A DNA stretch of 38,086 nt from a virus (Duplodnaviria > Caudoviricetes): IMG/VR virus record IMGVR_UViG_3300023238_000018, positions 1 through 38,086 of that record; one strand, 5' to 3'. Below are positions 2,289-38,086 of this stretch, piece after piece (the stretch's first letter is position 1; every line of letters begins with the position of its first letter). A program made the position numbers and the translations under genes. Below the pieces are notes generated by a model. It saw only the letters and a program-made list of their open reading frames with translations, was not told the origin of the DNA and searched no databases.

Positions 2289-5200
2289 CTATCGATTGCG
2301 CTTCGATCCTTCACGCTCTTCACGCCGCTTCTGGATCTTGTCCGCGCCTGCACCGAAATGCCAGTAATACGGTGATCCAGCGAACGGGAGAATGCGCCAG
2401 AAGTCGAAGTCCCCGGGCTTAATTTCATCACCGTCCTCGATCTTAGACCATGAATCAAATAGGTCCATGACCGGGAACTGGATGAATGGTGCCGGCGGCA
2501 ATGCGAGCAGGGCCACCGACTCAATCGGGTTTTGCCTGTAGCGGAAGTTCCACAGATGCCAGCGACTCACTCCAGAGAGCTTGAATAGGTTGTCCACCAT
2601 CAGGTCACTGAGCTGGGGATCTCTGCCCATCAGCCAATCCTTGAGCCAGTCAACCGGGACGTTGATCAGGTAGAGCACTCCCATCAGTCGGATCAGGTTG
2701 GCCATGCCCTGTGCCTTCTGACTGGCGTTGCCCGTAACCATCATGTCGATACCCTCACGACGGAAGGCCTCGAGTTGCTTGAGAGTGAATGTCTTGAGCA
2801 TGTAGAACACCCGACCATTTGGATTGGTGAGGTAGGATTCTGGATACTCCGACAGGCTGATCGGTTGGTAGTCGGCCAGCGTGCTGTAGACCGCGAACAG
2901 GACGTCCGAGGACTCCTTGCCAGCTGCGAGATCCGCCACCACCTGTGCGCCTTGCGCCTCACCAAACGAGGTGTTGATGCGGGCGATGGTCTTGGGACTC
3001 AGTTTCCCCTTCTTGGCTTCACGCTGCATGCTTCTCAGCTTCGCGTTGACCAAGGTTTCCTTACCGATCCGGTCGATGTAGCTCAGGCCCGTCAGCTTGA
3101 ACGTCATCTCCAGAGCGCGGTTCATCTTGGTCTTATCCCGAAATTCTTCGGCGATGTTCTCGATGCCCATAGTTTCCTTGGTGACCTTCGACTTACCTGC
3201 AACCGCAGTTCCAGCCGCAATGGCAGTGTCCCAGACTCCTGACTCGTAGATGGAAAACGCGAGATCGCCCAGCTGAGTGAGTGCCGATGTGACCTGCCCC
3301 ATGGTGGTGATGTAGCCAATGGTCTTGAACATCTTGATGACACCACTGGTGATGCCTTGGTTGAATCGGCCTTCCAAGATCGCGATCACTTCACGCTGAC
3401 TTTGGCCATCCAGCTCTCCACTGGATACCAGCGAATCAACCAGCCCGCCGATGGATGCATCTAGGGCCAGCTTCTTGCTCGACTTAACTCCACTGATAGT
3501 CGGGGTATCCACGGCGTAATTACCGAAGAATCGGCGCTTCTCGATGGCGGCATTGGTGCTGTCGATGTAGCCAAGCAGGGCTTGGATCGAGTCTGCGTAG
3601 AATGCGTTGGCATCCACATCGACGACGTCCGTCTTGCGTCCCTTGAAGTTGCCCGGGATCGATCCCTTGCGACCGAGTCCTTGCAGGGTTCGGTTGACTA
3701 CCTCCATGCGTTCTTCGTCGGTCAGGACTCTGCCCATCAGTGCTGCCTTCTTCGATGCTTCCTTAACTGCACGATCTACCACGCCACCTTCTGGCTTCCC
3801 GTAGTAGTGTGCTCGGAGTCCATCGAGGTCCATGACCTTGCGCGGGAAGTAGTCGGTGAGCTCACCAATCTCGTATCCTGCGGCAAGGCCTCGCTTACGG
3901 GTGTCTGCCAGCACTGCTTGCACTTCTGCGTAGGCTTCGCGTAGATCAAACGCCTGAAGGATCTGGTCCCGGGTTTGCGTGTCACCATTCTTTAACGCGA
4001 GATCCAAGATCAGTGCTTCGTTCTGACCCAACTTGGCGAATGCATCGACGAACGGTTTGATCTTGTCGAAATCCGCCTTGATCGCTCTGCCCGTGTCGAA
4101 CTCGAAGCGACGAAGCCGGGCCGCAAGGGTGGGTGCGAATCGATGTAGCCGGCCGGTGATTGGAATGAGTAGGCGAGCAGCCATGCTGGACTCTGCCGTG
4201 CGCTTGGCACGCTTCACCCGGGTGGGGAGTGTCTCACCCATCCTGATACGCCGGACCAGCTCTGCCGTGGCATCCTGTGCCTTGCTGCGGATCTTCTCAG
4301 CATCAGCCTGCAATGACTGCTCTTCGTTCTGAGGCACGCCTGTCAGGCCGAACACCACGTCCTCCTTGGATACCAAGCTGAAGGTGGAGTCTTCGTTGTC
4401 TGACAACTCCTCTTCCATGTCATCCAGTTGGTCCTCTGCATCACGACGGCTCACCATTGCACCATCCAAGTAATCGGCAGGCTTGGCCGCACCTTTGGCG
4501 ACACCGTGGTCTAAGAATAGATTCTTCTCACGATACCACACGATGGCCTGCATGTCTGCCACGGTGAGCTTGAAGCCGAGATCCTTCAGCTTCTGCTGAG
4601 CATTCAGCACGATGGCTTCGAACCAACCGCGCTCCGTTTTGTTTTGGGGAGCTGCCTTCATGCTGGCGTGGATCTGGATGGTGCGGGCTGCTTTCTCAAT
4701 GGCATACCCATCGGCGAACTTGGCGTATCCCTTTTTAGCATACTCATTCTTCTGACTCCATCGGGTAAACAGCTTAACCGCCGCTCGGACAGTGTGCTCA
4801 CCACCACGGTTGGCTTCCTTCATGTCCAAGCCATAGGTGCGAGTGCCGGGCTTGTTCAGCTCTGCACGGAATGCTGCTACCATCTTCTTTGATTTGGGTG
4901 TATCCAGAGGCAGGACCGACTCACCAACGTAGCGATGCATCGTGCGGGTATACCACAGATCCATGGTGATGGTATCGAAGCGCCCACGGAGGTTGTTGAA
5001 GAACGATCCGATCTTGGGACCAAGCACTCGGTTACCTCGCACAATCTCCGAAAGGGTGACCCCATCTGGAGCTGCCCCGAACATCTCCTTCAGTTGTCCG
5101 CCGGTCACTTCCTTGTCCATGAACTCGCGGAACCCATCGAGGCCATACTCCGCGATGATGCTATTCATCGTTGCGAGGTTGTCGTTGATCGGTTTCTTGG

Positions 5201-8200
5201 CGGCGGCGAACTTGGTGTCAGTCGGCAGGACTCCGTTCTTCTTGTAGCTTTCGTAAACCTTACGCGCATACTTGAAGTTCAGGATCACATTGTTGCCCTG
5301 TGAGGTCGCTGCCAGTGCTCCAATAAAGACGGTCATGGCATTAGGGTCTTCGGAGAACTCTGGAAAGATCTTCATCAATTCCCTGAACGTCTCTTGCACC
5401 CGCTCATCATACCACCCCATCCCTGAACCGTCAGTGCTTAGTCCATCAATGATGTCATAGGCCAGCGTGGTCCCACCATTGGTGATGCCCTCTTGGCTTC
5501 CTACTTCGTAGGCACCGACCTCGGTGTTTTCCTTGAACCGGGCATCTAGCCACAGACCGTAGTCGCGGATGGTGTCGAACTTGATTGAGCCCAGTTCTTG
5601 ATCGATCTTCGCCGCCGACTCTGGAGGAACAGGAAGGGACTTGAGCACCTTCTTGGCTTTGCGGGCGACCTTCGCCGCTGCCGCCTGCTTCTTTATTCTC
5701 CGCTCTGCTCTAGATACAACTTCGTTGAGGGCTTCTTGCTGTTGCCCGGCAGGGAGCTTGCTTGCACGAACCCGCGCCTCTCCAGCGATGCTTTCATATC
5801 TGCCACGCTCATCGGATGGGAACTCGGCCCGGCCCTGCCCCTGCGTAGGGATCTCCCCAACGCTAATGCTTCCTTTCTTGGTTGCTTTCTTAATAAAGGC
5901 TTCGACATGTCCATGCATCTCATCATCTGGGGACTTTAAGACAAGTGTGAATCGTCGGTTGGCTACGTCGTAGCTGAAGGCGGGCACCTTGCCCCGGTTC
6001 CAGTCCTTCGCAATAGCGGTCGCTGCTGCATCATTGGCCACGGTGAAGGTAATGATCTGATCCGGCCCGTTCTCGTCGTCTTGCCACACTAGCGCCGAGT
6101 TCTGAAGCTCTGGTGCGCTTGCTGCCACTAGTCCGGCCATCTCTGCACCGATTTCCATGTCGTCGGTGTCAAACTCGACCACTTCCGGCACCTCAAGGCT
6201 CACTTTTCCTCGCTCGGTCCATCCACCGATGACCGGGAAGCGGGCGGTGATCTTCACACCATACGCTGCTGCCACGTCATCGAAGATCTGCTGAAGGTGG
6301 ATGAACTTTGCCGATCCTGATCGCTTGAGCAGTTCGGCCTTGGTCAGTTTCGGCACCGTATCCACTCGGACGGGTGCGACGGTGACACGGAGGCTGAACG
6401 ACGTGTCGGCTACGTCAGGATCCACCGACTCGCGAGGGTTGATGTGGTCACCTGCGTTACCTGCTCGACCATCAAGCCATGTCCATTCCGGCATGAGCCC
6501 CGTCTTCTGCTCAGCGAATACCGTGTCGAACACCTTTGCCGTCTTGTTGGTTTCGCCATGCGGCCCGAAGTTAAGCCAGCTGTTCTGGCCCCGGGTCTCG
6601 CTGGTGAGAGCACCCACGGCGCTTCCCCTGAACAGGCGGACGTGTGCCTGCCATGCGTTCTCCTCACCCCGGGCACGGAAGCCTGCTCCCTCGATACCAT
6701 GGCCAAAGGCATCATGGACTGCTCGGAACAGGTCATTAGCCAGCACTCGCTTCATTGGCCCATCCTTACCGAAGCGCCACGTGATCCCGGTGTCCGACAG
6801 TAGGGGGTTTTCTGAGGTATCTACCGTGGTGGATTCATCGCTACCAAACCCAGCCTCCGTGGCGTAGACTGCCATGCGCTTGTTGGCCCGCAGGTCACGC
6901 ATCGCATTCCATGGGTTGCCGGCGTAAGGATCGTTGCTGTCATCGACCAGATAGAACTCGTAGCCAGCTGCCTCAAGGGCGCGATACTGGGCGGCGGTCT
7001 GGGTGATCAGGTTCTGGTAAGCCTCTGCCACCACCGGGTCACCCGGGGCGTGCTTCATCTTGTCGTAGGCCTGAGCGATCTTCGCCGCTCGGTCTTTGTC
7101 TACGTGAACGAACTCTGCCTGACGGTGAAGAGGGAGGCCAAGGCTCTTGGCATACTCCTCCACTACACTGACGAGGTTCAGGTCCGGTCCGGTCGCGCCT
7201 TCAATAGCTGGCGCACCTTCAAGCGGCGTAAGGACTCCGCTGCCGTATCTTTCTGCTCCGTCTGTTCCGGTGTCTCCGGTAGTGCGTCGGGCATTGGCTG
7301 GCTGAGAGTCTCCTGTAGTTCCTTTGTCATATCTTGGGGTCCGTTGTGCCCCAGTGCCATCCGGTTGTCCATCACTGTCTCCAACAGAGAAGGTGATGTC
7401 GGGATTGGCTGGATCGTAGGTGCCACGGTTGCCGGTGGCGCTCTTGATCTGAGTCGGCTCGAAGACAACAAACATCGAAGTGCCTGCAGCCTTTCCGGTG
7501 CCGGTAACAACGATGCCGTCGTGCCCACCCCGCTTGGCCTTATCCTGTATGTCCTGCCAGCTCTGATCGTAAAAAGACTGAGGCCACTTGCCGCCCGACT
7601 TCCGAACATACGGGTTAGTAATTCTAAGATACACCGGGACGATATTCTCCCTCGCATTGGCTCTGGCGTCCCAGATACCTGCCTCAAAGGCGGAATCTTC
7701 TGCCTCCAGCGGGTTGGTTGTGAAGAAGAAACCTTCGCGTCCCTCAAACTGAGATGACGACGGTCCATCACCTTGGCGGCTTTTGTTAAACTCTGCGAAG
7801 GACGATGACGTCCCATGGTAAACCACTTTTGGCTTTCCGGCATCATTCACGACCTTGCTGTCCCCAAACCACTTGTTGAATGCAGGCGATCCAACAGAGA
7901 AGGTGATGTCAGGATCGACTGGATCGTAGGTTCCTCGGTTGCCGGTGGCGCTCTTGATCTGCGCGGGCTCGAAGACGACATAGATTGTCCCCTCTTCCCC
8001 CCCAGTGCTATCTGGTCCGCCGTCCGACACGTTGTGGATGATGAGCCCATCTGCCTCCATATCCCTAGCGTCCCGAGCCCAACTGTCAGTGGATTTTCCC
8101 CAAGACCTAGTAAACTTCGATGCCTTCCCTTCGTCTACTGCCGCCTGCGCTTCACTTTCCGTGTAGACCGTGTCGAATGTATCACCATCTTCGTCGAAGA

Positions 8201-11200
8201 GATCGAACCCTTCCGATATGTCGTCCCAATTTTGCCCCTTGGCGTCGATAATGATAGGGTCTTTAAGCGCCAAATAAACTTCGTAAACCCCTGAGAAAGC
8301 CTCTGGCTGCAAGTTATCAACTGCTTCGTCCAGAGCGTCCTCCCGGGAGGATCCCTCGAAGGTTTCCCCGTCAGGATTCGTCGCAATCCATATGTCATAT
8401 CTTTCGTCAAATTCCACTTCAATACCGTGGCGTTCTGGGTCTTTTCGGATTTTCTCCAACGAAGGTGGATCCTCAACGCCGCTTCTACCCGAATACGTTT
8501 TTGCAGTGAACAGATCATCCGTGAAAAAGGCACCTGTTCTGGCAGTCTTACCCTTTCCATCGGTGTCAAATTCCGTGAATCCCAGCTGAGTGCTCCCATG
8601 GTAAACCACTTTTGGCTTTCCGGCATCATTCACGACCTTGCTGTCCCCAAACCACTTGTTGAATGCAGGCGATCCAACAGAGAAGGTGATGTCAGGATCG
8701 ACTGGATCGTAGGTGCCACGGTTGCCGGTGGCGCTCTTGATCTGAGTCGGCTCGAAGGCAACGTAAACCGGGAAGGAAATAGCCTTCGGGTCATCACGGT
8801 CTAGGATCTTCAGCCCTTGGGTCTTATGGACTTTTTTAGCGGTTGTTTCACGTGTGATTATTCCATCATAGCCCTGACGTTGAAGATCGAGCTTAGCTGT
8901 CGGGCTGATGTTCCCACTGAACCCTCGGGCCGCGCCGAATGTCTGCCCTTTCTCGATATAACGGGCAAGGTCATCCACGTGATCTACAACGAGTGGATTC
9001 TTGATGCTAAGATAGACCGGGATCGACTTCGGTTGGTTGGGTTCTCCCCGGTATGATTGATTTGATTGGAATCGTTGTCCGTATTCCGTGAATAAATTAG
9101 CACCTGTAATGTCGGAAAAATAGAACCCGTAGCCTGCTTTACCAAACCGTTGTTCACTTACGTCAAAGCTGCTGATTCCGCCATCAGCCGAAAATACGTT
9201 TCCATGGACCACCACTTTCGGCTTTCCGTCAGCGTCCACCACCTTGCTGTCTCCAAACCACTTCTTGAATGCTACTGAGTTCGTAGCCGGTGCCACGCTG
9301 AACGACACATCCCCGTAGCCCTCTTCATCAAGGATGCGCTGAGCCTGCACACTGATCTCTGCGGTTATGCCGTAGACTGGCTCGATCTCTGCCTGAGCCC
9401 GTTGCAGCATGATGGCAGTCAGCTCTTCCTCACGGGACAGCTTGTGCTTCAACCGCTGGTAATTCTCCAGTGACTCACGCTCTGCCGCTTCGGGCTTGAT
9501 CATAGCAAACACCTCTTCCAGTTCCGCCTGCTTCTTCGCCCTCCCCCGGTCTACTGCTGCTGCCACTGCCTCTGCTTTGGGAGTGAGGCCAAGCGCACCC
9601 TTGAGCGCCTGCTCTAGCTCGGTATTCAATTTACCATCACGCTGCATCTTGGTCATCTTCGCGGCCATCTTCATGACCTGCCTGAGGTGATCACCAAGCA
9701 TGCGAAGGAACCCACCCCAGCTCTTCGGCATGTTGTCTGCCTTGCGGTTGCTCACTGCGTAGTCGACGACCCGGGCGCTGAACCATTCCACCAAGCCCTG
9801 CTTGCTGTTGGTGCCGGGGGCAATCCCTGCTTTCGCATCGTATTCGGTTCTCCATGACTGAAGCTCATCGAGACTCAAGTCACCAATCTTCAGGCGCTTC
9901 TTCACGTAACCCTCTGAGACTTCCTCGATCACCGTGAATGCGTTGCCGCCTCTCCAGATCTTGGATACATCAGTCTCCACGTTGTTACGGTATTCGGTGA
10001 TATTGTTTCCCAGAACTACCATATCCCGTGGGTTCGTGCCCTCTGGGATGTTGGCACCGTTCTCGATGGCGATCTTCATGCGCTCCTCTGCCTTCTTTAT
10101 GTCGGCCAAACCTGCGTCAATGAAGTCACCCATGGTTCGCTCCTCCTCCTCGAACTCGATCACCTTGGTCTCGTCATCGAATCGCTTGGTGAGTTCGTTC
10201 GCCACCTCCTGTGCCGCTTTCTTGGATACCTGCGCTTTGAACCGCTCCAAGAACTGGACGTGCTCTTGATTCGAGAGGTTGATGGCGAAGATATTTCCTT
10301 CCTTGTCCTTCAGGACGGGCACCCCTTTGACGTTACCTAAGGTCATGCCCGCTGCTTCCATGCCCTCGGTTGCCGTAAACTGTTCGTTGATCAGCTTCTT
10401 GTTGTATTCCCGCTGAGCGACCACGTCACCATTGACCGCTGCCACCAGTAGCTTGCCGCTCTCTGCGTCTGGTGCGGATGCCATCAGTTCCTCATCGCTC
10501 TTGATCTTGCGCAATGCGTTGAACTCTGGACCTGTTAGCGGGTTGCCGTCCTTGGCTACAACCATGGCACCTTCGGCCTTGGTTGCTGCTGCGGAGTCCA
10601 TTGATTCAGCGATGGCGATAGGGCCACCAAACAGAGCGCCCATGGTAGCACCCGCGACCATTTCGAACAGACGGCGCTCTGCTGCATCACCGGTGATGAT
10701 CATGCGCTTCTCGTCATAGGTCAGGCTTGCGATCATGTCGCCCCATGCTCCCTGAGCAGGCTCGGTCCATGCTTCACCTATTGACGATTCCACGACCCGT
10801 TTCCCCACGTTCTTGAGGTAGTCCCCGAACATGACCTTCCCTCCCACCTTGGCTGTGGCTTTCATCGCCGAGGCCAGCACCTTCTCGATACCTACATACC
10901 GCTCAAGGATCATCTGGGGGACCGCAGACGCTAGGTTGGTTGCTACGCCTTGTTGTGGGTCATACGTGCCGCCTTGCTCCTCGATCGCCCGCTTCTGGTC
11001 CATCTCAGCCTCCCCGAAGAACACCGACTCCATCGCTGCCAATCCACCCGGCCCCATCATCCCCAGAACCGCAGTTGCTGGGACACCTCCTGCCATTTGC
11101 GCGAACTTACCGAGGGTCGTTTCCGCGAACTCAGGATCGATCCCGTAGTAGTGGTTCATCTCCTCAGCCATCTCGTAGAGGGTGTCGGAGTTCTTGCGGA

Positions 11201-11972
11201 CCTGCTTGGCCTTCTCTGCCCGCTCTGGGTTCTCCGATTCGAAATCCTCCGTTGCCTTCGACCACGCTCGCATGTTGACGATATGCTCCTTGTCCAAGCG
11301 GGTGCGTATGCCTCTCATGCGCTTCTCGTTTGCCTCGAGCTGGGGATCGTAGGCAGCAGGGTTGAAGTAGCTGCCCTCTTCATCTCGAACCGAGCTGAAC
11401 TGATAGGGATCCTCCATCTCTTTGTTGCGGCGGGCCAGCGTGGCATACTCACCATCACTCATGGGATCCGGTGCCTGTGGCATGGTCGGTCCACCAATAA
11501 ATGAAGCCTCCTGACTGTGGGCTGCCGCTAACCCCATGTATCCGATTTTTGCTGCTCCTGAGGGGATCGACCGTGCAGCCTGCTCCGCCTTGTAGAGGAA
11601 GGTATTGGCTGGTGCCTTGGGCATACCTCCGACTGGGGAATACTCCTCCGTTGGGGTCTGGGTGCCATCGGTTCCTTCACCCTCTCCGCCGGCGAACTCG
11701 AAGGTCTTTGAGATCTGATCGTATGCTCCAGATGGGGTCACCCCCGGTCCGAAGAATCGCCCGGCAATGGCATCGAAGTTGTCGGCCACCTGTTTCTTGG
11801 GAAGACCCAGCCGCTTGGATAGCCAGAGTGAAGAGAACTGCTTGTCGGCGAACTGTGTGTCGCCTGCCTTTGTTGCCTCCTGTTCTGCTACGGAGAACGT
11901 GTTTCTGACGGTTTCAGGAAGCCGGTTGACCCGGGTGTCACGGGACTCGAAGAAGGGAGATAGATCATCCAT
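2289..11972 (-). CDS. Giant internal virion (ejection-type) polyvalent protein, 3227 aa, with three ART-PolyVal-like modules, metallopeptidase-like domains and an HhH-glycosylase-like domain
   Basis: Occupies the T7 gp16-equivalent position. Three copies of KWFGDSKVV..GKPKVVxHG...FF/YF...VYL...P...DG.I...FEPxQIKSATGNRG; HDAFGH...GEENAW; WY...GPKIG.F..N...D.W..R...QAIVW; helical C-terminus. Confidence 0.85.
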   Translation of the reverse strand: MDDLSPFFESRDTRVNRLPETVRNTFSVAEQEATKAGDTQFADKQFSSLWLSKRLGLPKKQVADNFDAIAGRFFGPGVTPSGAYDQISKTFEFAGGEGEGTDGTQTPTEEYSPVGGMPKAPANTFLYKAEQAARSIPSGAAKIGYMGLAAAHSQEASFIGGPTMPQAPDPMSDGEYATLARRNKEMEDPYQFSSVRDEEGSYFNPAAYDPQLEANEKRMRGIRTRLDKEHIVNMRAWSKATEDFESENPERAEKAKQVRKNSDTLYEMAEEMNHYYGIDPEFAETTLGKFAQMAGGVPATAVLGMMGPGGLAAMESVFFGEAEMDQKRAIEEQGGTYDPQQGVATNLASAVPQMILERYVGIEKVLASAMKATAKVGGKVMFGDYLKNVGKRVVESSIGEAWTEPAQGAWGDMIASLTYDEKRMIITGDAAERRLFEMVAGATMGALFGGPIAIAESMDSAAATKAEGAMVVAKDGNPLTGPEFNALRKIKSDEELMASAPDAESGKLLVAAVNGDVVAQREYNKKLINEQFTATEGMEAAGMTLGNVKGVPVLKDKEGNIFAINLSNQEHVQFLERFKAQVSKKAAQEVANELTKRFDDETKVIEFEEEERTMGDFIDAGLADIKKAEERMKIAIENGANIPEGTNPRDMVVLGNNITEYRNNVETDVSKIWRGGNAFTVIEEVSEGYVKKRLKIGDLSLDELQSWRTEYDAKAGIAPGTNSKQGLVEWFSARVVDYAVSNRKADNMPKSWGGFLRMLGDHLRQVMKMAAKMTKMQRDGKLNTELEQALKGALGLTPKAEAVAAAVDRGRAKKQAELEEVFAMIKPEAAERESLENYQRLKHKLSREEELTAIMLQRAQAEIEPVYGITAEISVQAQRILDEEGYGDVSFSVAPATNSVAFKKWFGDSKVVDADGKPKVVVHGNVFSADGGISSFDVSEQRFGKAGYGFYFSDITGANLFTEYGQRFQSNQSYRGEPNQPKSIPVYLSIKNPLVVDHVDDLARYIEKGQTFGAARGFSGNISPTAKLDLQRQGYDGIITRETTAKKVHKTQGLKILDRDDPKAISFPVYVAFEPTQIKSATGNRGTYDPVDPDITFSVGSPAFNKWFGDSKVVNDAGKPKVVYHGSTQLGFTEFDTDGKGKTARTGAFFTDDLFTAKTYSGRSGVEDPPSLEKIRKDPERHGIEVEFDERYDIWIATNPDGETFEGSSREDALDEAVDNLQPEAFSGVYEVYLALKDPIIIDAKGQNWDDISEGFDLFDEDGDTFDTVYTESEAQAAVDEGKASKFTRSWGKSTDSWARDARDMEADGLIIHNVSDGGPDSTGGEEGTIYVVFEPAQIKSATGNRGTYDPVDPDITFSVGSPAFNKWFGDSKVVNDAGKPKVVYHGTSSSFAEFNKSRQGDGPSSSQFEGREGFFFTTNPLEAEDSAFEAGIWDARANARENIVPVYLRITNPYVRKSGGKWPQSFYDQSWQDIQDKAKRGGHDGIVVTGTGKAAGTSMFVVFEPTQIKSATGNRGTYDPANPDITFSVGDSDGQPDGTGAQRTPRYDKGTTGDSQPANARRTTGDTGTDGAERYGSGVLTPLEGAPAIEGATGPDLNLVSVVEEYAKSLGLPLHRQAEFVHVDKDRAAKIAQAYDKMKHAPGDPVVAEAYQNLITQTAAQYRALEAAGYEFYLVDDSNDPYAGNPWNAMRDLRANKRMAVYATEAGFGSDESTTVDTSENPLLSDTGITWRFGKDGPMKRVLANDLFRAVHDAFGHGIEGAGFRARGEENAWQAHVRLFRGSAVGALTSETRGQNSWLNFGPHGETNKTAKVFDTVFAEQKTGLMPEWTWLDGRAGNAGDHINPRESVDPDVADTSFSLRVTVAPVRVDTVPKLTKAELLKRSGSAKFIHLQQIFDDVAAAYGVKITARFPVIGGWTERGKVSLEVPEVVEFDTDDMEIGAEMAGLVAASAPELQNSALVWQDDENGPDQIITFTVANDAAATAIAKDWNRGKVPAFSYDVANRRFTLVLKSPDDEMHGHVEAFIKKATKKGSISVGEIPTQGQGRAEFPSDERGRYESIAGEARVRASKLPAGQQQEALNEVVSRAERRIKKQAAAAKVARKAKKVLKSLPVPPESAAKIDQELGSIKFDTIRDYGLWLDARFKENTEVGAYEVGSQEGITNGGTTLAYDIIDGLSTDGSGMGWYDERVQETFRELMKIFPEFSEDPNAMTVFIGALAATSQGNNVILNFKYARKVYESYKKNGVLPTDTKFAAAKKPINDNLATMNSIIAEYGLDGFREFMDKEVTGGQLKEMFGAAPDGVTLSEIVRGNRVLGPKIGSFFNNLRGRFDTITMDLWYTRTMHRYVGESVLPLDTPKSKKMVAAFRAELNKPGTRTYGLDMKEANRGGEHTVRAAVKLFTRWSQKNEYAKKGYAKFADGYAIEKAARTIQIHASMKAAPQNKTERGWFEAIVLNAQQKLKDLGFKLTVADMQAIVWYREKNLFLDHGVAKGAAKPADYLDGAMVSRRDAEDQLDDMEEELSDNEDSTFSLVSKEDVVFGLTGVPQNEEQSLQADAEKIRSKAQDATAELVRRIRMGETLPTRVKRAKRTAESSMAARLLIPITGRLHRFAPTLAARLRRFEFDTGRAIKADFDKIKPFVDAFAKLGQNEALILDLALKNGDTQTRDQILQAFDLREAYAEVQAVLADTRKRGLAAGYEIGELTDYFPRKVMDLDGLRAHYYGKPEGGVVDRAVKEASKKAALMGRVLTDEERMEVVNRTLQGLGRKGSIPGNFKGRKTDVVDVDANAFYADSIQALLGYIDSTNAAIEKRRFFGNYAVDTPTISGVKSSKKLALDASIGGLVDSLVSSGELDGQSQREVIAILEGRFNQGITSGVIKMFKTIGYITTMGQVTSALTQLGDLAFSIYESGVWDTAIAAGTAVAGKSKVTKETMGIENIAEEFRDKTKMNRALEMTFKLTGLSYIDRIGKETLVNAKLRSMQREAKKGKLSPKTIARINTSFGEAQGAQVVADLAAGKESSDVLFAVYSTLADYQPISLSEYPESYLTNPNGRVFYMLKTFTLKQLEAFRREGIDMMVTGNASQKAQGMANLIRLMGVLYLINVPVDWLKDWLMGRDPQLSDLMVDNLFKLSGVSRWHLWNFRYRQNPIESVALLALPPAPFIQFPVMDLFDSWSKIEDGDEIKPGDFDFWRILPFAGSPYYWHFGAGADKIQKRREEREGSKRNR
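7380..7464. repeat. Partial copy C of the intragenic module-junction repeat
   Basis: Matches 8673-8757; 7409-7464 is identical to 8702-8757. Confidence 0.9.
7811..7974. repeat. Copy B of the 164-bp module-junction direct repeat
   Basis: 7811-7931 is identical to 8594-8714 (offset 783); I count 5 mismatches over 164 bp. Confidence 0.95.
8594..8757. repeat. Copy A of the 164-bp module-junction direct repeat
   Basis: Matches copies B and C; a diverged partial copy lies at about 9200-9272. Confidence 0.95.
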
Positions 11973-12017: not shown

Positions 12018-13670
12018 CTAGCTGCCCGGTAGCAAATCCCCAAAGGCTTCCTCAACGGTTTGGGCACCGGATAGTTCTCGGACCTCCGACTCCAATACCT
12101 CCTTCAGCTTGGCTACTTCCACTGGTGGTGGGTTGCCCTCATAGGCGTCGTAGAAGCTGCGGATTCGTCTCTCCTGACCGAACATTGCGTCTCCCATTTG
12201 CGTGGCACCAAGACCGACTGACAGCTTACGGTAGGTCTCCAGCATTCCCTTTCGAAGATCCTTTTCCCCTGCCGTAATATCGCGATCAGCGAATGCCCCA
12301 GTTCCCTCTTCTTCTAGGTCATTGATGTCCGTGATCTTCATCAGCATCAGATCATCCATCAACCTGAGTCGGGTTGGCTGGGTCACCTCTGCGTTGAGTA
12401 TCCGGTTTTGCAGGACGATATAAGCAGGGTCCGATCGCTGGGCACCCTCTGCACCTTTGTCCAGCGCATCCCACCATCCCGCTGCCATGTCGGCCTTGAT
12501 CGACCTGTATTCACCTTCTGGATCCTGAATCTCGGTCGTTGATGCCAGTTCAAGTTGGGCAGCAATCTTTTTCCCCTGTTCACCAGTGATCACCCCAAGG
12601 ACTACTTGCTGCTCAACCTCTCGAAGTCCTGCCTCCTTCTTCTCCAGCACGGTTGCCGTCAACGAGTCTGCGGACTTGGCCTTACGGATGGCTTGATCGT
12701 TTGCATCTTCGGCAACCTTGGCCCGGCGCTCTTCGGTGGCTTGCTTGACGTAGGGATCCAATCCCATGGCCGTCCGCTCATCGATCTCTCCATCATCCAG
12801 TGCGGCTTGAACATCTGATGCCGTGGCTTTCCCGGCCCTGATAGATGCGACCAAACTTCGCCCCGTGACGTCCATCTGGCGCTGGGCTGCACGTGCTCTG
12901 GATCCCGCGATTGATTGGAGGTTCACCCGTTGTCCAAGTGCCATGCCCCCTTCCTTTTCTTCCCACTCTGAGTGGGCACCGTCGTCGTTCTTGGCTGTGA
13001 GCCTACCCACGAAGTCACCGTAGGAGTCCAGCTGTTCGGCTGGGGTCTGCTCCGAGATCGAATCGAGTTCGTTGTTGGCCATGCGATAGAGACCCTGTTC
13101 GAGTCCATCACGGATAGCCCGCTGCTTAGCCTCGGGAGCGAGGTTCATCTTGTTCATCGCCTCCTTGAACTTATCGTGGTATCCCCCTCTCAAGTATGCC
13201 TGAGCATTGGTTTCAATGTTCGCATTCGATTTTCGGATACTGGCCCGCTTCGTGGCGATATTAGTCTGCGCTACGAACCTTGCTTTGAAGTCCTCGTATT
13301 GCATGCGGTCAGCTTCGACCACTTGCTTGCTCCACCCATCATCCTTGGCCCGCTTGTCACGGGATTTCTCATACGCACCGAGCGATTCATTGATGTGAGC
13401 TTCCCACGTCTCCGGTTTGTCTTGGTTGTCCTCCATCCACACCTTGATTTCTGAATCGGTATTGATGCGAACGGTGTCCTCATGGGCCATGATTCCCTCG
13501 CCCACGTGCTTCTTCACCTCTTGATCGATGCGCAGCATCACAGCACCGGTCTGGCTGATGGCTCGGCCTGCTTGGGCTATGGCACCACCAGCGGCGATCT
13601 GGGCCGATGGATCAACTGCTCGCGATAGAGGGACTGACCCAACTGGTGGGCGATCTACTGTAGGGATCAT
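12018..13670 (-). CDS. Internal virion protein (T7 gp15-like position)
   Basis: 550 aa, alpha-helical and A/E/K-rich; lies between the small internal virion protein and the giant protein. Confidence 0.7.
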   Translation of the reverse strand: MIPTVDRPPVGSVPLSRAVDPSAQIAAGGAIAQAGRAISQTGAVMLRIDQEVKKHVGEGIMAHEDTVRINTDSEIKVWMEDNQDKPETWEAHINESLGAYEKSRDKRAKDDGWSKQVVEADRMQYEDFKARFVAQTNIATKRASIRKSNANIETNAQAYLRGGYHDKFKEAMNKMNLAPEAKQRAIRDGLEQGLYRMANNELDSISEQTPAEQLDSYGDFVGRLTAKNDDGAHSEWEEKEGGMALGQRVNLQSIAGSRARAAQRQMDVTGRSLVASIRAGKATASDVQAALDDGEIDERTAMGLDPYVKQATEERRAKVAEDANDQAIRKAKSADSLTATVLEKKEAGLREVEQQVVLGVITGEQGKKIAAQLELASTTEIQDPEGEYRSIKADMAAGWWDALDKGAEGAQRSDPAYIVLQNRILNAEVTQPTRLRLMDDLMLMKITDINDLEEEGTGAFADRDITAGEKDLRKGMLETYRKLSVGLGATQMGDAMFGQERRIRSFYDAYEGNPPPVEVAKLKEVLESEVRELSGAQTVEEAFGDLLPGS

Positions 13671-28164: not shown

Positions 28165-28340
28165 CCGTAGCAAATCCCCCCGGCATACGTCCAATTCAAG
28201 GGTGTAATTAGCTGAGTCGGTGGCACAGGATTTACGCCTGCCGTCTGGATCATTGTATCCGGTCCAGTCCGCTGCGGTCGCGACCCGCTTGCCAAAACCG
28301 CCTGAGAGGGACCACCGACTCAGCCAATTACATGCTACGG
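28165..28340 (-). ncRNA. Unidentified structured RNA candidate
   Basis: 21-bp stem 28203-28223/28312-28332 (one G-U on the minus strand), outer 8-bp stem 28165-28172/28333-28340, several internal hairpins; downstream of the tRNA. Confidence 0.6.
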
Positions 28341-28417
28341 TCCTCAGCTCTTTCGAGCACGTAGAATTAAGTCCGGTTGGTAGTAGTGTATTCAGGCCGG
28401 ACACCGTAGACAGGCAT

Positions 28418-28493
28418 TGGTAGCAGAGGAGGGATTCGAACCCCCGACTTCCAGATTATGAGTCTAGCGATCTAACCGCTGATCTACTCTGCA
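28418..28493 (-). tRNA. tRNA-Met (CAT), initiator-like
   Basis: 76-nt cloverleaf TGCAGAG TA GATC AGCGGTTA GATC G CTAGA CTCATAA TCTGG AAGTC GGGGG TTCGAAT CCCTC CTCTGCT A CCA, with encoded CCA. Confidence 0.95.
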
Positions 28494-36303: not shown

Positions 36304-36752
36304 CTACTCCGATCCAAACATTAACCAACGCCGAAATCATCGCAGAGATGTGCCGATTGTTGCGCCTCCTATCCAAGCGGGCCGACGCCGCCATGCCGGT
36401 CCATTCTCCCGATCGCTCCGCGAACAAATTGATCCTTATACAACAGGCGATTTGCGACGTGTTACGCACTCCGATCGCGGTCATGTCATCCCGAGCCCGA
36501 CCTGACAACTACGTCCAAGCACGGCACATCGCGATGTTCCTGAGCCGCGAGCTGACCGAATACTCCATGCAAGATATAGCCAAATCGTTTCGCCCGACAA
36601 TGAACCACTCCACGATCACTCATGGCCACAGAGCGTGCCTCGATCGCATGATGCACGTCAAAGGATTTGAGTCGCTTGTCGATGCCTGCAAACAACGGGC
36701 GCTGAAGCTAATCGACAACGCCGGCCTCCCCCTCTTCCAGCAATCGTTGTGA
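36300..36752 (+). CDS. DnaA C-terminal (domain IV) HTH-like protein
   Basis: S..R....VQARHIAMFLSRELT.YS...IA..F....HSTI.HG. Confidence 0.85.
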   Translation: MTTPIQTLTNAEIIAEMCRLLRLLSKRADAAMPVHSPDRSANKLILIQQAICDVLRTPIAVMSSRARPDNYVQARHIAMFLSRELTEYSMQDIAKSFRPTMNHSTITHGHRACLDRMMHVKGFESLVDACKQRALKLIDNAGLPLFQQSL

Positions 36753-37324: not shown

Positions 37325-37606
37325 ATGAACCCTAACCTAATAGACCTCCTACAGCGCGTCCAAACTGGCCACGCGACCTGTATGTTTGCGGCGAAAGAGA
37401 TCGAAGCCAATGAGGAAAAACTCCTCGGCCTAATTGAATCGGCTGCAAACCGGCTCGAAACGATACAGGAAACCGACACCACTGGGCTACAACTGGCCGC
37501 CGACATTAAGCGCCTTCGCGCAGTGTTTCGGTCTGCGAACAACACTATGAGACACGGGCCTGACGCGCCCGAAAACAAAAGCGGCGAACCACCGTTGTCT
37601 CGATAA
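37325..37606 (+). CDS. Hypothetical protein ending inside attC-like site 1
   Basis: 93-aa ORF, stop at 37604-37606. Confidence 0.7.
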   Translation: MNPNLIDLLQRVQTGHATCMFAAKEIEANEEKLLGLIESAANRLETIQETDTTGLQLAADIKRLRAVFRSANNTMRHGPDAPENKSGEPPLSR

Positions 37607-37617
37607 TCTGGTTCAAC
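37534..37617 (-). other. attC-like recombination site 1
   Basis: Plus strand gAAC-aacac-TAT GAGAC ACGG...CCGT [T] GTCTC [G] ATA-atctg-GTTc: core triplets, 5-nt spacers, two extrahelical bases. Confidence 0.7.
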
Positions 37618-37961
37618 TTTTTTACTATGAAACCGATACTCAAATACGATGGTGACCGCGCCGAATCAGCGGCGTGCCTTTTAACAGACCTCGACGAGTT
37701 CGATGGGGAGTCTGCCGACGCCCAACGCATGATCGAAGAAGCGATGGCCTGCGAGGTTCAGCGAGTGCTCAAACGGATAACCCGGCACACGGAAAACGAA
37801 GGCGTCTACGGATGGAGGGTAGTGTTCGATTACGATAACATCCATGACGGGGCGCGGATTCTTGACGGAGACGGCCACTCGATGGCGGAGTGTTATGAGA
37901 AGGGCGAGCCGGACGATCAATTCGTGAGGGCGATAGACTCACTCATTCGCGGCCCGTTGAA
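37540..37961. mobile_element. Putative integron-type gene cassette (422 bp)
   Basis: Lies between the AA|C positions of the two sites; GTTCAAC (37611-37617) is the exact complement of GTTGAAC (37956-37962). Confidence 0.6.
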
Positions 37962-37995
37962 CAACGAGGTCAGACGCGACCCGTCGAAGGCTTAA
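37627..37995 (+). CDS. Acidic hypothetical protein (cassette cargo)
   Basis: 122 aa; stop lies in the loop of site 2. Confidence 0.7.
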   Translation: MKPILKYDGDRAESAACLLTDLDEFDGESADAQRMIEEAMACEVQRVLKRITRHTENEGVYGWRVVFDYDNIHDGARILDGDGHSMAECYEKGEPDDQFVRAIDSLIRGPLNNEVRRDPSKA

Positions 37996-38084
37996 AACCT
38001 CAACCAACCAATAAAAATGTCATACCAAAATAAAATGTCAGAAGCCGGACAGCGAGGGTCGTTGTCTGAAGTGGTTTGTTATGC
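37956..38084 (-). other. attC-like recombination site 2
   Basis: Plus strand gAAC-aacga-ggT CAGAC GCGACCC...GGGTCGT [T] GTCTG [A] Agt-ggttt-GTTa. Confidence 0.65.
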
Positions 38085-38086
38085 TC
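38017..38086 (+). CDS. Partial ORF starting in the loop of site 2
   Basis: In-frame ATGs at 38017 and 38035 after A-rich leaders; MSYQNKMSEAGQRGSLSEVVCYA..., open to the edge. Confidence 0.55.
   Translation, partial: MSYQNKMSEAGQRGSLSEVVCYA

Follow-up and report, generated by a model that had tools for sequence, protein, structure and literature searches.

Analysis of the 38,086-nt stretch of DNA presented above (the window) reveals that the phage to which it belongs, phage A, carries an array of attC-type sites whose cassette genes are inverted relative to ordinary integron cassettes, and that one of these cassettes recurs, identical from edge to edge, in phage B, an unrelated phage from the same samples. 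An exact, identical cassette in two unrelated phages is what is new from this locus, and it makes it likely that such phages trade accessory genes. The array behaves as an integron array would, yet departs from the canonical type in its inverted genes and in having no intI or attI in cis. The best explanation, to which we assign a probability of about 0.85, is an orphan, inverted attC array (CALIN) whose cassettes would be moved by an integron integrase (IntI) acting in trans, the recombination itself being what we infer. The interpretation given in the preliminary description, namely attC-type recombination of single-stranded DNA by which the phage may shuffle accessory genes, is supported by these sequence comparisons.

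Anatomy and polarity of the phage A array

The window is a single phage contig, and the runs in which it occurs are salt-lake metagenomes. Podovirus-type head, portal and tail genes lie on its - strand, and a block of + strand genes extends from about 28.9 kb to the window end, including an exonuclease, a helicase loader, a DnaA-type helix-turn-helix protein and small genes. A longer contig of phage A adds 4,358 nt to the window and gives a closed circle of 42,444 nt. The capsid homologs are all less than 60% identical and name no host. A tRNA gene with a CAT anticodon (28418–28493, - strand) sits at the joint of the two gene blocks; it is the sole match of an Rfam scan of the window, in which neither of the hairpins described below was matched. 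Just 3' of the tRNA lies a candidate structured RNA (28165–28408, - strand; fold z-score -3.3), present in phage B as a copy with 83.6% identity (L088:10521–10757); 8 of its 75 predicted pairs are changed on both sides between the two copies, and no Rfam family is reached at the gathering score. A 3,227-aa protein (2289–11972, - strand), whose PHROG matches are all of unknown function, adjoins the internal virion genes.

Two homologous hairpins with a GAGAC/GTCTC versus CAGAC/GTCTG change had been noticed near the right end of the window. Both are present in the sequence, and this observation is confirmed: both sites have attC bottom-strand geometry on the + strand. Their layout comprises a left box ending in AAC, a 5-nt spacer, 3 bp, 5 bp, further stem and a loop, followed on the return arm by an unpaired T, 5 nt, an unpaired purine, 3 nt, a 5-nt spacer and GTT. 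Unpaired bases on the arm with the distal GTT are described as a mark of the attC bottom strand in the available sections of two earlier studies (Nivina 2016, PMC5027507; Bouvier 2009, PMC2727003). Site 1 (37534–37617, + strand, 84 nt) consists of a left box (37534–37540), a 5-nt spacer, the L box, the loop and a right box (37611–37617). Its unpaired bases are T 37596 and G 37602, the G lying 3+5 nt before GTT as originally reported, and its crossover is predicted at 37539|37540. The earlier account of site 2 stands as regards the hairpin but needed correction in its span, now 37956–38084 (+ strand, 129 nt), in its first unpaired base, which is an A (38069; the T is at 38063), and in the outer 3-bp L segment, which is imperfect (GGT vs. 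AGT); the predicted crossover is 37961|37962. The loops of the two sites are unrelated, the spacers are 5+5 nt, and both lengths fall within the range of 57–141 nt. An unpaired T at the second position is found in all 10 sites of phages A and B. The 5-bp L core has a pairing probability on the + strand of 0.96 in site 1 and 0.74 in site 2; whole-site folding energies are not unusual against shuffled sequences (z-scores of 0.09 and -0.40, respectively). The R boxes (GTTCAAC, TGCGAAC, GTTGAAC) depart from the extended consensus RYYYAAC/GTTRRRY, as do those of IntI-linked sites of Verrucomicrobiota.

Scoring was based on our own geometry scanner (maximum 12) instead of the IntegronFinder/HattCI models, with the three published TJE1 sites as positive control; these are recovered with their genes on the top strand, which also validates strand calling. 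Site 1 scores 12 and site 2 scores 10. Since 30 first-order Markov resamplings of the window, which define the chance level, contained no site at 11 or above and six at 10 or above, site 1 is beyond chance and site 2, taken by its score, is not. Site 2 is established by the fact that two genomes diverge exactly at its AAC.

Together with the extending contig L081, the array comprises four sites and three cassettes. Further sites had been anticipated beyond the window edge, with a next left box resembling GCATAAC, and L081 indeed contains GCATAAC as well as site 3 (38274–38369 in extended coordinates, + strand), followed by a 112-aa gene, and site 4 (38608–38664, + strand), which has a 4-nt right spacer and is followed by an HNH-like gene. 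Cassette 1 (37540–37961, + strand, 422 bp), already delimited in the preliminary description, starts from the C of the AAC in site 1 and contains site 1, a single gene and a left box by which its own R box is completed at 7 of 7 positions; its right border is the junction with phage B. Equally upheld is the finding that the right box of site 1 matches its own left box at 4 of 7 positions and the left box of site 2 at all 7. Along the array, right boxes match the next left boxes at 7/7, 7/7 and 6/7 positions. The 122-aa gene of cassette 1 (37627–37995, + strand) crosses the AAC of site 2 in frame, as Asn; its final residues and its stop codon are provided by the left arm of that site. It has no PHROG, Pfam or homolog match, and its Atlas model is poor. 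Cassette X (318 bp, + strand) occupies 37962–38086 of the window and ends at 38279 in the L081-extended coordinates. Its gene (38017–38086 within the window, + strand) has its start codon in the loop of site 2 and runs through the right arm, and its protein is 99, 102 or 110 aa long depending on the next cassette, with three different tails in phage A, phage B and a variant of B; in five homologs the Asn at the crossover is kept and the sequence beyond it varies. Upstream of the array, a 93-aa gene (37325–37606, + strand) supplies the left box of site 1, crosses the AAC of this site in frame and stops in its right arm; it has no family match and is either a cassette remnant or a native target gene. 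The gene of cassette 3 (in L081) and a phage B gene (L077:10890–11199) are homologous, with 53% identity, and are combined with different sites. The Atlas neighbours of the cassette 3 protein are phage proteins, one similar cluster with 12% ASCH being a lead only. Among 24 loci related through a 124-aa gene at 36749, no array of this site family was found, the matches being five scattered single ones, and a search around the array revealed no excess of promoters or terminators.

Canonical cassettes have a top-strand gene that ends before its own attC and is expressed from Pc, features that are not those of the present array, in which genes start in or after their own site and end in the next one. 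The claim that the genes are inverted relative to ordinary cassettes holds well beyond the window: of 37 phage cassettes, 29 have the longer ORF on the bottom strand and 2 on the top strand, with 6 ties, whereas of 43 host cassettes 37 have it on the top strand and 5 on the bottom strand, with 1 tie. The right box agrees with the next left box at 4/4 positions in 26 of 37 phage cassettes and with its own left box in 5 of 49 sites; these counts, like those of polarity, include pattern-seeded sites and one likely false L081 site, both omitted from the counts that follow, whose sites are not fully independent. The AAC lies in the longest upstream open frame in 8/10 sites of phages A and B and in 19/29 and 27/32 phage sites, compared with 21/52 host sites. 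Inside the site, that frame has a stop in 10/10, 29/29 and 30/32 phage sites, respectively, vs. 36/52 in hosts, and an ATG within the site opens the downstream ORF in 5/10, 21/29 and 22/32, vs. 3/52. A lagging-strand rationale for the inversion (Loot 2017, PMC5371416, in its available text) finds no support: the cumulative GC skew on the + strand is -1.76, which by the skew rule would place the bottom strand on the leading-strand template, phage skew saying little in either direction.

A cassette common to two unrelated phages

A 24-nt probe from site 2 retrieved six metagenome and three viral loci, which sort into phage A and phage B. The two phages share exactly 322 nt at 100% identity (37960–38281 in extended coordinates), corresponding to the 318-bp cassette X plus AACA. 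AAC and AACA form the borders of this segment, and flanking identity at its two junctions amounts to 3 and 4 nt. The rest of the 46.5 kb of phage B compared has in common with phage A only pieces of the tail fibre, a structured stretch of 244 nt, one site arm of 23 nt and a few distantly related proteins, and phage B has its own portal, capsid, RecT-like, exonuclease VIII and integrase genes. The tail-fibre segments (185–298 and 702–810 of the window, against L088:5648–7513) are 89% identical, in line with a shared host. A further natural junction is provided by L078, which is phage B (99.98% identity over 10,235 nt) but has, compared with L077, 528 nt more at AACAA; this difference corresponds to two cassettes of 278 and 250 bp, with 5 nt of flanking identity. 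The three junctions, having 3–5 nt shared on AAC, place the crossover to the triplet and not to the base. Boundaries between genomes had been expected to fall at AAC, and the A/B junctions and the L077/L078 indel all do so. The prediction of relatives lacking exactly 37540–37961 fared less well: no such joint was seen in the contigs of 8 of the 24 listed runs, contigs being a form of data that drops rare variants. Uncovered stretches over cassette 1 in runs X18 and X21 were considered as the empty-site form and rejected, being low-depth gaps without joints.

The array of phage B (L077:7400–12240) contains at least seven well-formed sites in addition to half sites, and an attI-like end junction near 12230. 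One of its sites (about 8590–8712) is without the first unpaired base, and in the same array a right arm identical to that of phage A site 3 lies under a non-matching left arm. BLASTN of the phage A array against 50,697 GenBank phages gave no match, and a left-arm pattern scan of viral contigs gave 52 loci, none of them with the right arm. In right-arm scans, phage B was the only true relative among 18 viral loci, and 22 genome loci yielded none.

Two explanations without site-specific recombination have to be considered here. The first attributes both the shared segment and the indel to misassembly around a repeat and takes the hairpins for translational-coupling or RNA elements. A 78,090-nt contig (L080, L082) that is probably a B+A chimera with cassette X as its joint would fit, as would the start and stop codons that sites often hold. 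The end of the window also falls within cassette X. Independent assemblies, however, contain the same 322 nt as a separate unitig at about the summed depth of A and B: in X11 its depth is 38.5 with flanks at 6.8 and 29.6, and in X4 it is 78.6 with flanks at 46.5–50.3 and 12.7–24.4. Contiguous contexts also exist: in X1 and X16 phage A runs unbroken across the unit, and in X18 and X13 phage B does so on one side. Five of the eight runs examined (X4, X11, X13, X18, X24) have loose contig ends at 37960. All of this A/B evidence stems from salt-lake metagenomes, which a single campaign may have produced, and the window may itself derive from X1 and X4. Moreover, the hairpins have no Rfam match, and their loops are unrelated whereas the arm geometry matches that of IntI-linked chromosomal sites. 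We regard an assembly artefact as extremely improbable.

According to the second, the shared unit was moved by homologous or microhomology recombination of the phages (RecET-like), the hairpins being old relics or hotspots without an active part. Genes for a RecT-like protein and exonuclease VIII are present in phage B and exonuclease-like genes in phage A, and the half sites as well as the 23-nt arm common to A and B under a different left arm suggest some homology-driven events. RecT/Red recombination, however, needs tens of bases of homology, and the flanking identity is only 3 and 4 nt for the A/B segment and 5 nt for the indel, all on the AAC triplet. Complementarity between a right box and the next left box (26/37) is, in addition, expected of circular intermediates and not of homologous exchange, and we consider this explanation very unlikely.

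AAC is where IntI recombines folded attC bottom strands, and on CALINs the enzyme works in trans. If the phage A array is an orphan array used in this way, the + strand would fold as single-stranded DNA, IntI would cut at AA|C, and recombination between attC sites would release circles of 422 or 318 nt, which could then insert at a different site, either of the same phage or of a second phage present in the host cell. The cassette genes would be expressed from the phage's own transcription, no Pc being needed because they are co-linear with the + strand gene block. The site would double as coding sequence, often as the start of its own gene and nearly always as the AAC-frame stop ending the preceding one; as this stop lies inside the site, each move would change the last 10–20 residues of the preceding gene product. 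Observations that count against this model include the lack of a form without cassette 1 in the contigs of the eight runs, the R boxes that depart from the extended consensus and the absence of an attI-like junction in phage A; the 4-nt right spacer of site 4; the spacers of phages A and B, of which 0/10 start with GT and 8/10 are 5 nt long, vs. 47/52 and 4/52 in hosts; and the failure with IntI1 of P12002L attC1, whose bottom strand is on the coding strand like those of the phage A sites, as reported in the accessible part of Qi 2023 (PMC9892861).

Integrases and hosts of the site family

As stated in the preliminary description, the window contains no integrase: neither PF00589 nor an IntI alignment gave a match in the phage A genome (G000), where no tyrosine recombinase was found, and tblastn gave none in the window or in the closing 4,358 nt of the circle. 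A search of phage A for an attI-like junction was negative as well. Two clustered attC sites in the window, four with L081, and no integrase nearby correspond to the definition of CALINs (at least two such sites; Cury 2016). A phage-type two-arm pattern led to 15 viral loci, 13 of them with a true site. Tyrosine recombinases are present in 3 of 13 other records of the array family, and one of these, in L189, is an IntI. It scores 267.9 against the TIGR02249 cut-off of 265, has the IntI-specific insertion and starts about 35 nt after the attI-like junction predicted from the last right box; its relatives number at least 120 at 59–78% identity, one of them named from Prosthecobacter. In a viral scan with an alignment of these relatives, the highest-ranking matches comprised 22 IntI-like loci. 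Sites of the present family lie upstream on the intI strand in 16 of the 22 (15 distinct), and the six without sites include three with less than 500 nt upstream. Eight distinct arrays terminate, near intI, in an attI-like AA|CAG..AT, and the genes are again inverted (12 bottom, 4 ties and 4 top of 20; L209 and L214 were left out of the tallies as repeats). The inverted site family is thus tied to IntI by position. Several of these loci lie next to genes for capsid, protease or transposition proteins and include cassettes that encode methyltransferases. In a tree that took 12 of the 20 viral loci, a 100/99 branch separates 10 of the 12 viral IntIs from 30 host IntIs, some of this clustering arising by construction since they were retrieved by likeness to L189. 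The phage IntI alignment gave no match in 401 Verrucomicrobiota genomes at E ≤1e-100, a strict threshold used without positive control.

Movement of the cassettes by a tyrosine recombinase other than IntI, either Xer-like or a prophage integrase, that recognises the same hairpins is a third alternative. Such enzymes are encoded within a few kb of the arrays in L191 and L195 (2 of the 13 other records), without attI-like link, phage B encodes a 398-aa integrase, and the spacers of A and B differ from those of host attC sites. The enzymes of L191 and L195, however, are far below the IntI cut-off and resemble ordinary phage integrases; that of phage B is of prophage type and about 9 kb from its array, and three partial records of phage B contain no IntI. 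Furthermore, 11 of 14 virus records are without any tyrosine recombinase, and the enzyme found repeatedly at the attI-like junction ending an array is IntI (16/22 viral IntI loci with sites). This alternative therefore appears unlikely. In several integrase-less arrays (L191:6526, L195:2662–2967, L197), a similar small Arg/Ala-rich gene follows the terminal attI-like junction.

IntI above the TIGR02249 cut-off was found in 86 of 301 sampled genomes of Verrucomicrobiota, a phylum listed as integron-bearing in the available text of Cury 2016 (PMC4889954). Among 20 regions around Verrucomicrobiota IntI genes there are arrays with the same L-box cores, e.g. CAGAC/GTCTG and GAGAC/GTCTC in L182, and a host-type two-arm pattern occurs in 8/201 Verrucomicrobiota vs. 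0/201 Planctomycetota genomes. The site family by itself points to Verrucomicrobiota as the probable host of phage A. One phage protein used as query gave no match among 251 genomes each of Verrucomicrobiota and Planctomycetota, a result without weight for the choice of host, and the cassette proteins of A and B gave no match to the ORFs of host loci. One Verrucomicrobiota chromosome (L185) has four short cassettes with the longer ORF on the bottom strand, which are possibly gene-less or captured from the phage type.

Given that IntI acts in trans, the enzyme serving the phage A array would be, by a slight preference, the chromosomal IntI of the Verrucomicrobiota host, favored because host enzymes are common and most arrays are without an integrase of their own. 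An enzyme of the phage IntI clade, supplied by a co-infecting phage, is a serious but weaker candidate, the spacer length of phage A being closer to that of the phage-IntI arrays, and some other enzyme is improbable. Whether Verrucomicrobiota phages possess an integron network of their own, with an IntI clade, attI, a shared cassette pool of reverse polarity, a polarity firewall and rewriting of C-termini, we judge to be an even bet. Such a pool would be common to unrelated podoviruses, temperate and Mu-like phages. Host cassettes, including anti-phage systems, would enter a phage array antisense and silent, and phage cassettes would be silent behind a host Pc; each move would rewrite the C-terminus of the neighbour protein, making attC sites natural coding linkers. 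The firewall role of the reverse polarity is speculative and relies on integrons storing anti-phage genes (Darracq 2024, 10.1101/2024.07.02.601686, in its accessible part). The clean-edged exchange of single accessory genes between unrelated phages has long called for an explanation. A cassette present in two such phages that co-occur, its junctions lying on the crossover triplet, would name a mechanism and provides substrates ready for use. Integrons are known from bacteria, where they also store anti-phage genes; they would be extended to a phage-side pool of opposite polarity, and related phage arrays carry DNA methyltransferases. The attC sites would be natural ones that encode protein, and assembly breaks and fusions at such loci would also be explained.

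Comparison with known integron systems

CALINs in virulent phages have been published, and IntI1 recombined five of the six phage attC sites tested, P12002L attC1 being the one that failed (Qi 2023, PMC9892861, in its accessible sections). These resemble the phage A array in their clusters of attC sites without integrase and in the geometry of AAC, spacer, L box, unpaired base and GTT. TJE1, unlike phage A, has its genes on the top strand, in canonical polarity; P12002L attC1 is the sole published site found with its bottom strand on the coding strand. This comparison covers TJE1 and P12002L, two of the 17 CALINs of that study. The accessible sections of Qi 2023 describe no systematic inversion, read-through of both arms, phage-phage exchange or phage IntI clade. 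Annotated genes of TJE1 (L206:244–293 and 1016–1075) also run into attC sites, in canonical polarity.

With the attC sites known to be recombined by IntI (PMC2727003, PMC5027507 and PMC5371416, as far as their available text goes), the phage sites have in common the AAC crossover, the unpaired central spacer, two extrahelical bases on one arm, a variable terminal structure and a length of 57–141 nt. In the same papers a top-strand gene is required for expression from Pc, whereas the phage A genes are on the bottom strand, and the base after AAC is G, whereas it is A in the phage A sites; changing this G is reported there to have little effect.

The chromosomal integrons of Verrucomicrobiota (L169–L186) are like the phage arrays in their cores (GAGCC/GGCTC, CAGAC/GTCTG, GAGAC/GTCTC), unpaired T, second unpaired base, R-box rule and similar attI start. 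They are unlike them in having genes on the top strand, a left spacer of 6 nt starting with GT and shorter sites (median 71 nt vs. 88–107 nt in phage), with a start codon in 3 of 52 sites.

The full texts searched, among which subscription papers are mostly absent, contained nothing on inverted phage arrays, a phage IntI clade or phage-phage cassette exchange, and as far as these searches show, the phage-borne complete inverted integrons (L189/L209–L230) are not a published family. They share with phage A the site family, the inverted genes, the AAC in frame (27/32) and the stop inside the site (30/32), and they differ from it in the attI-like junction and intI located directly downstream on the coding strand and in the base after AAC, which is mostly G (31/34).
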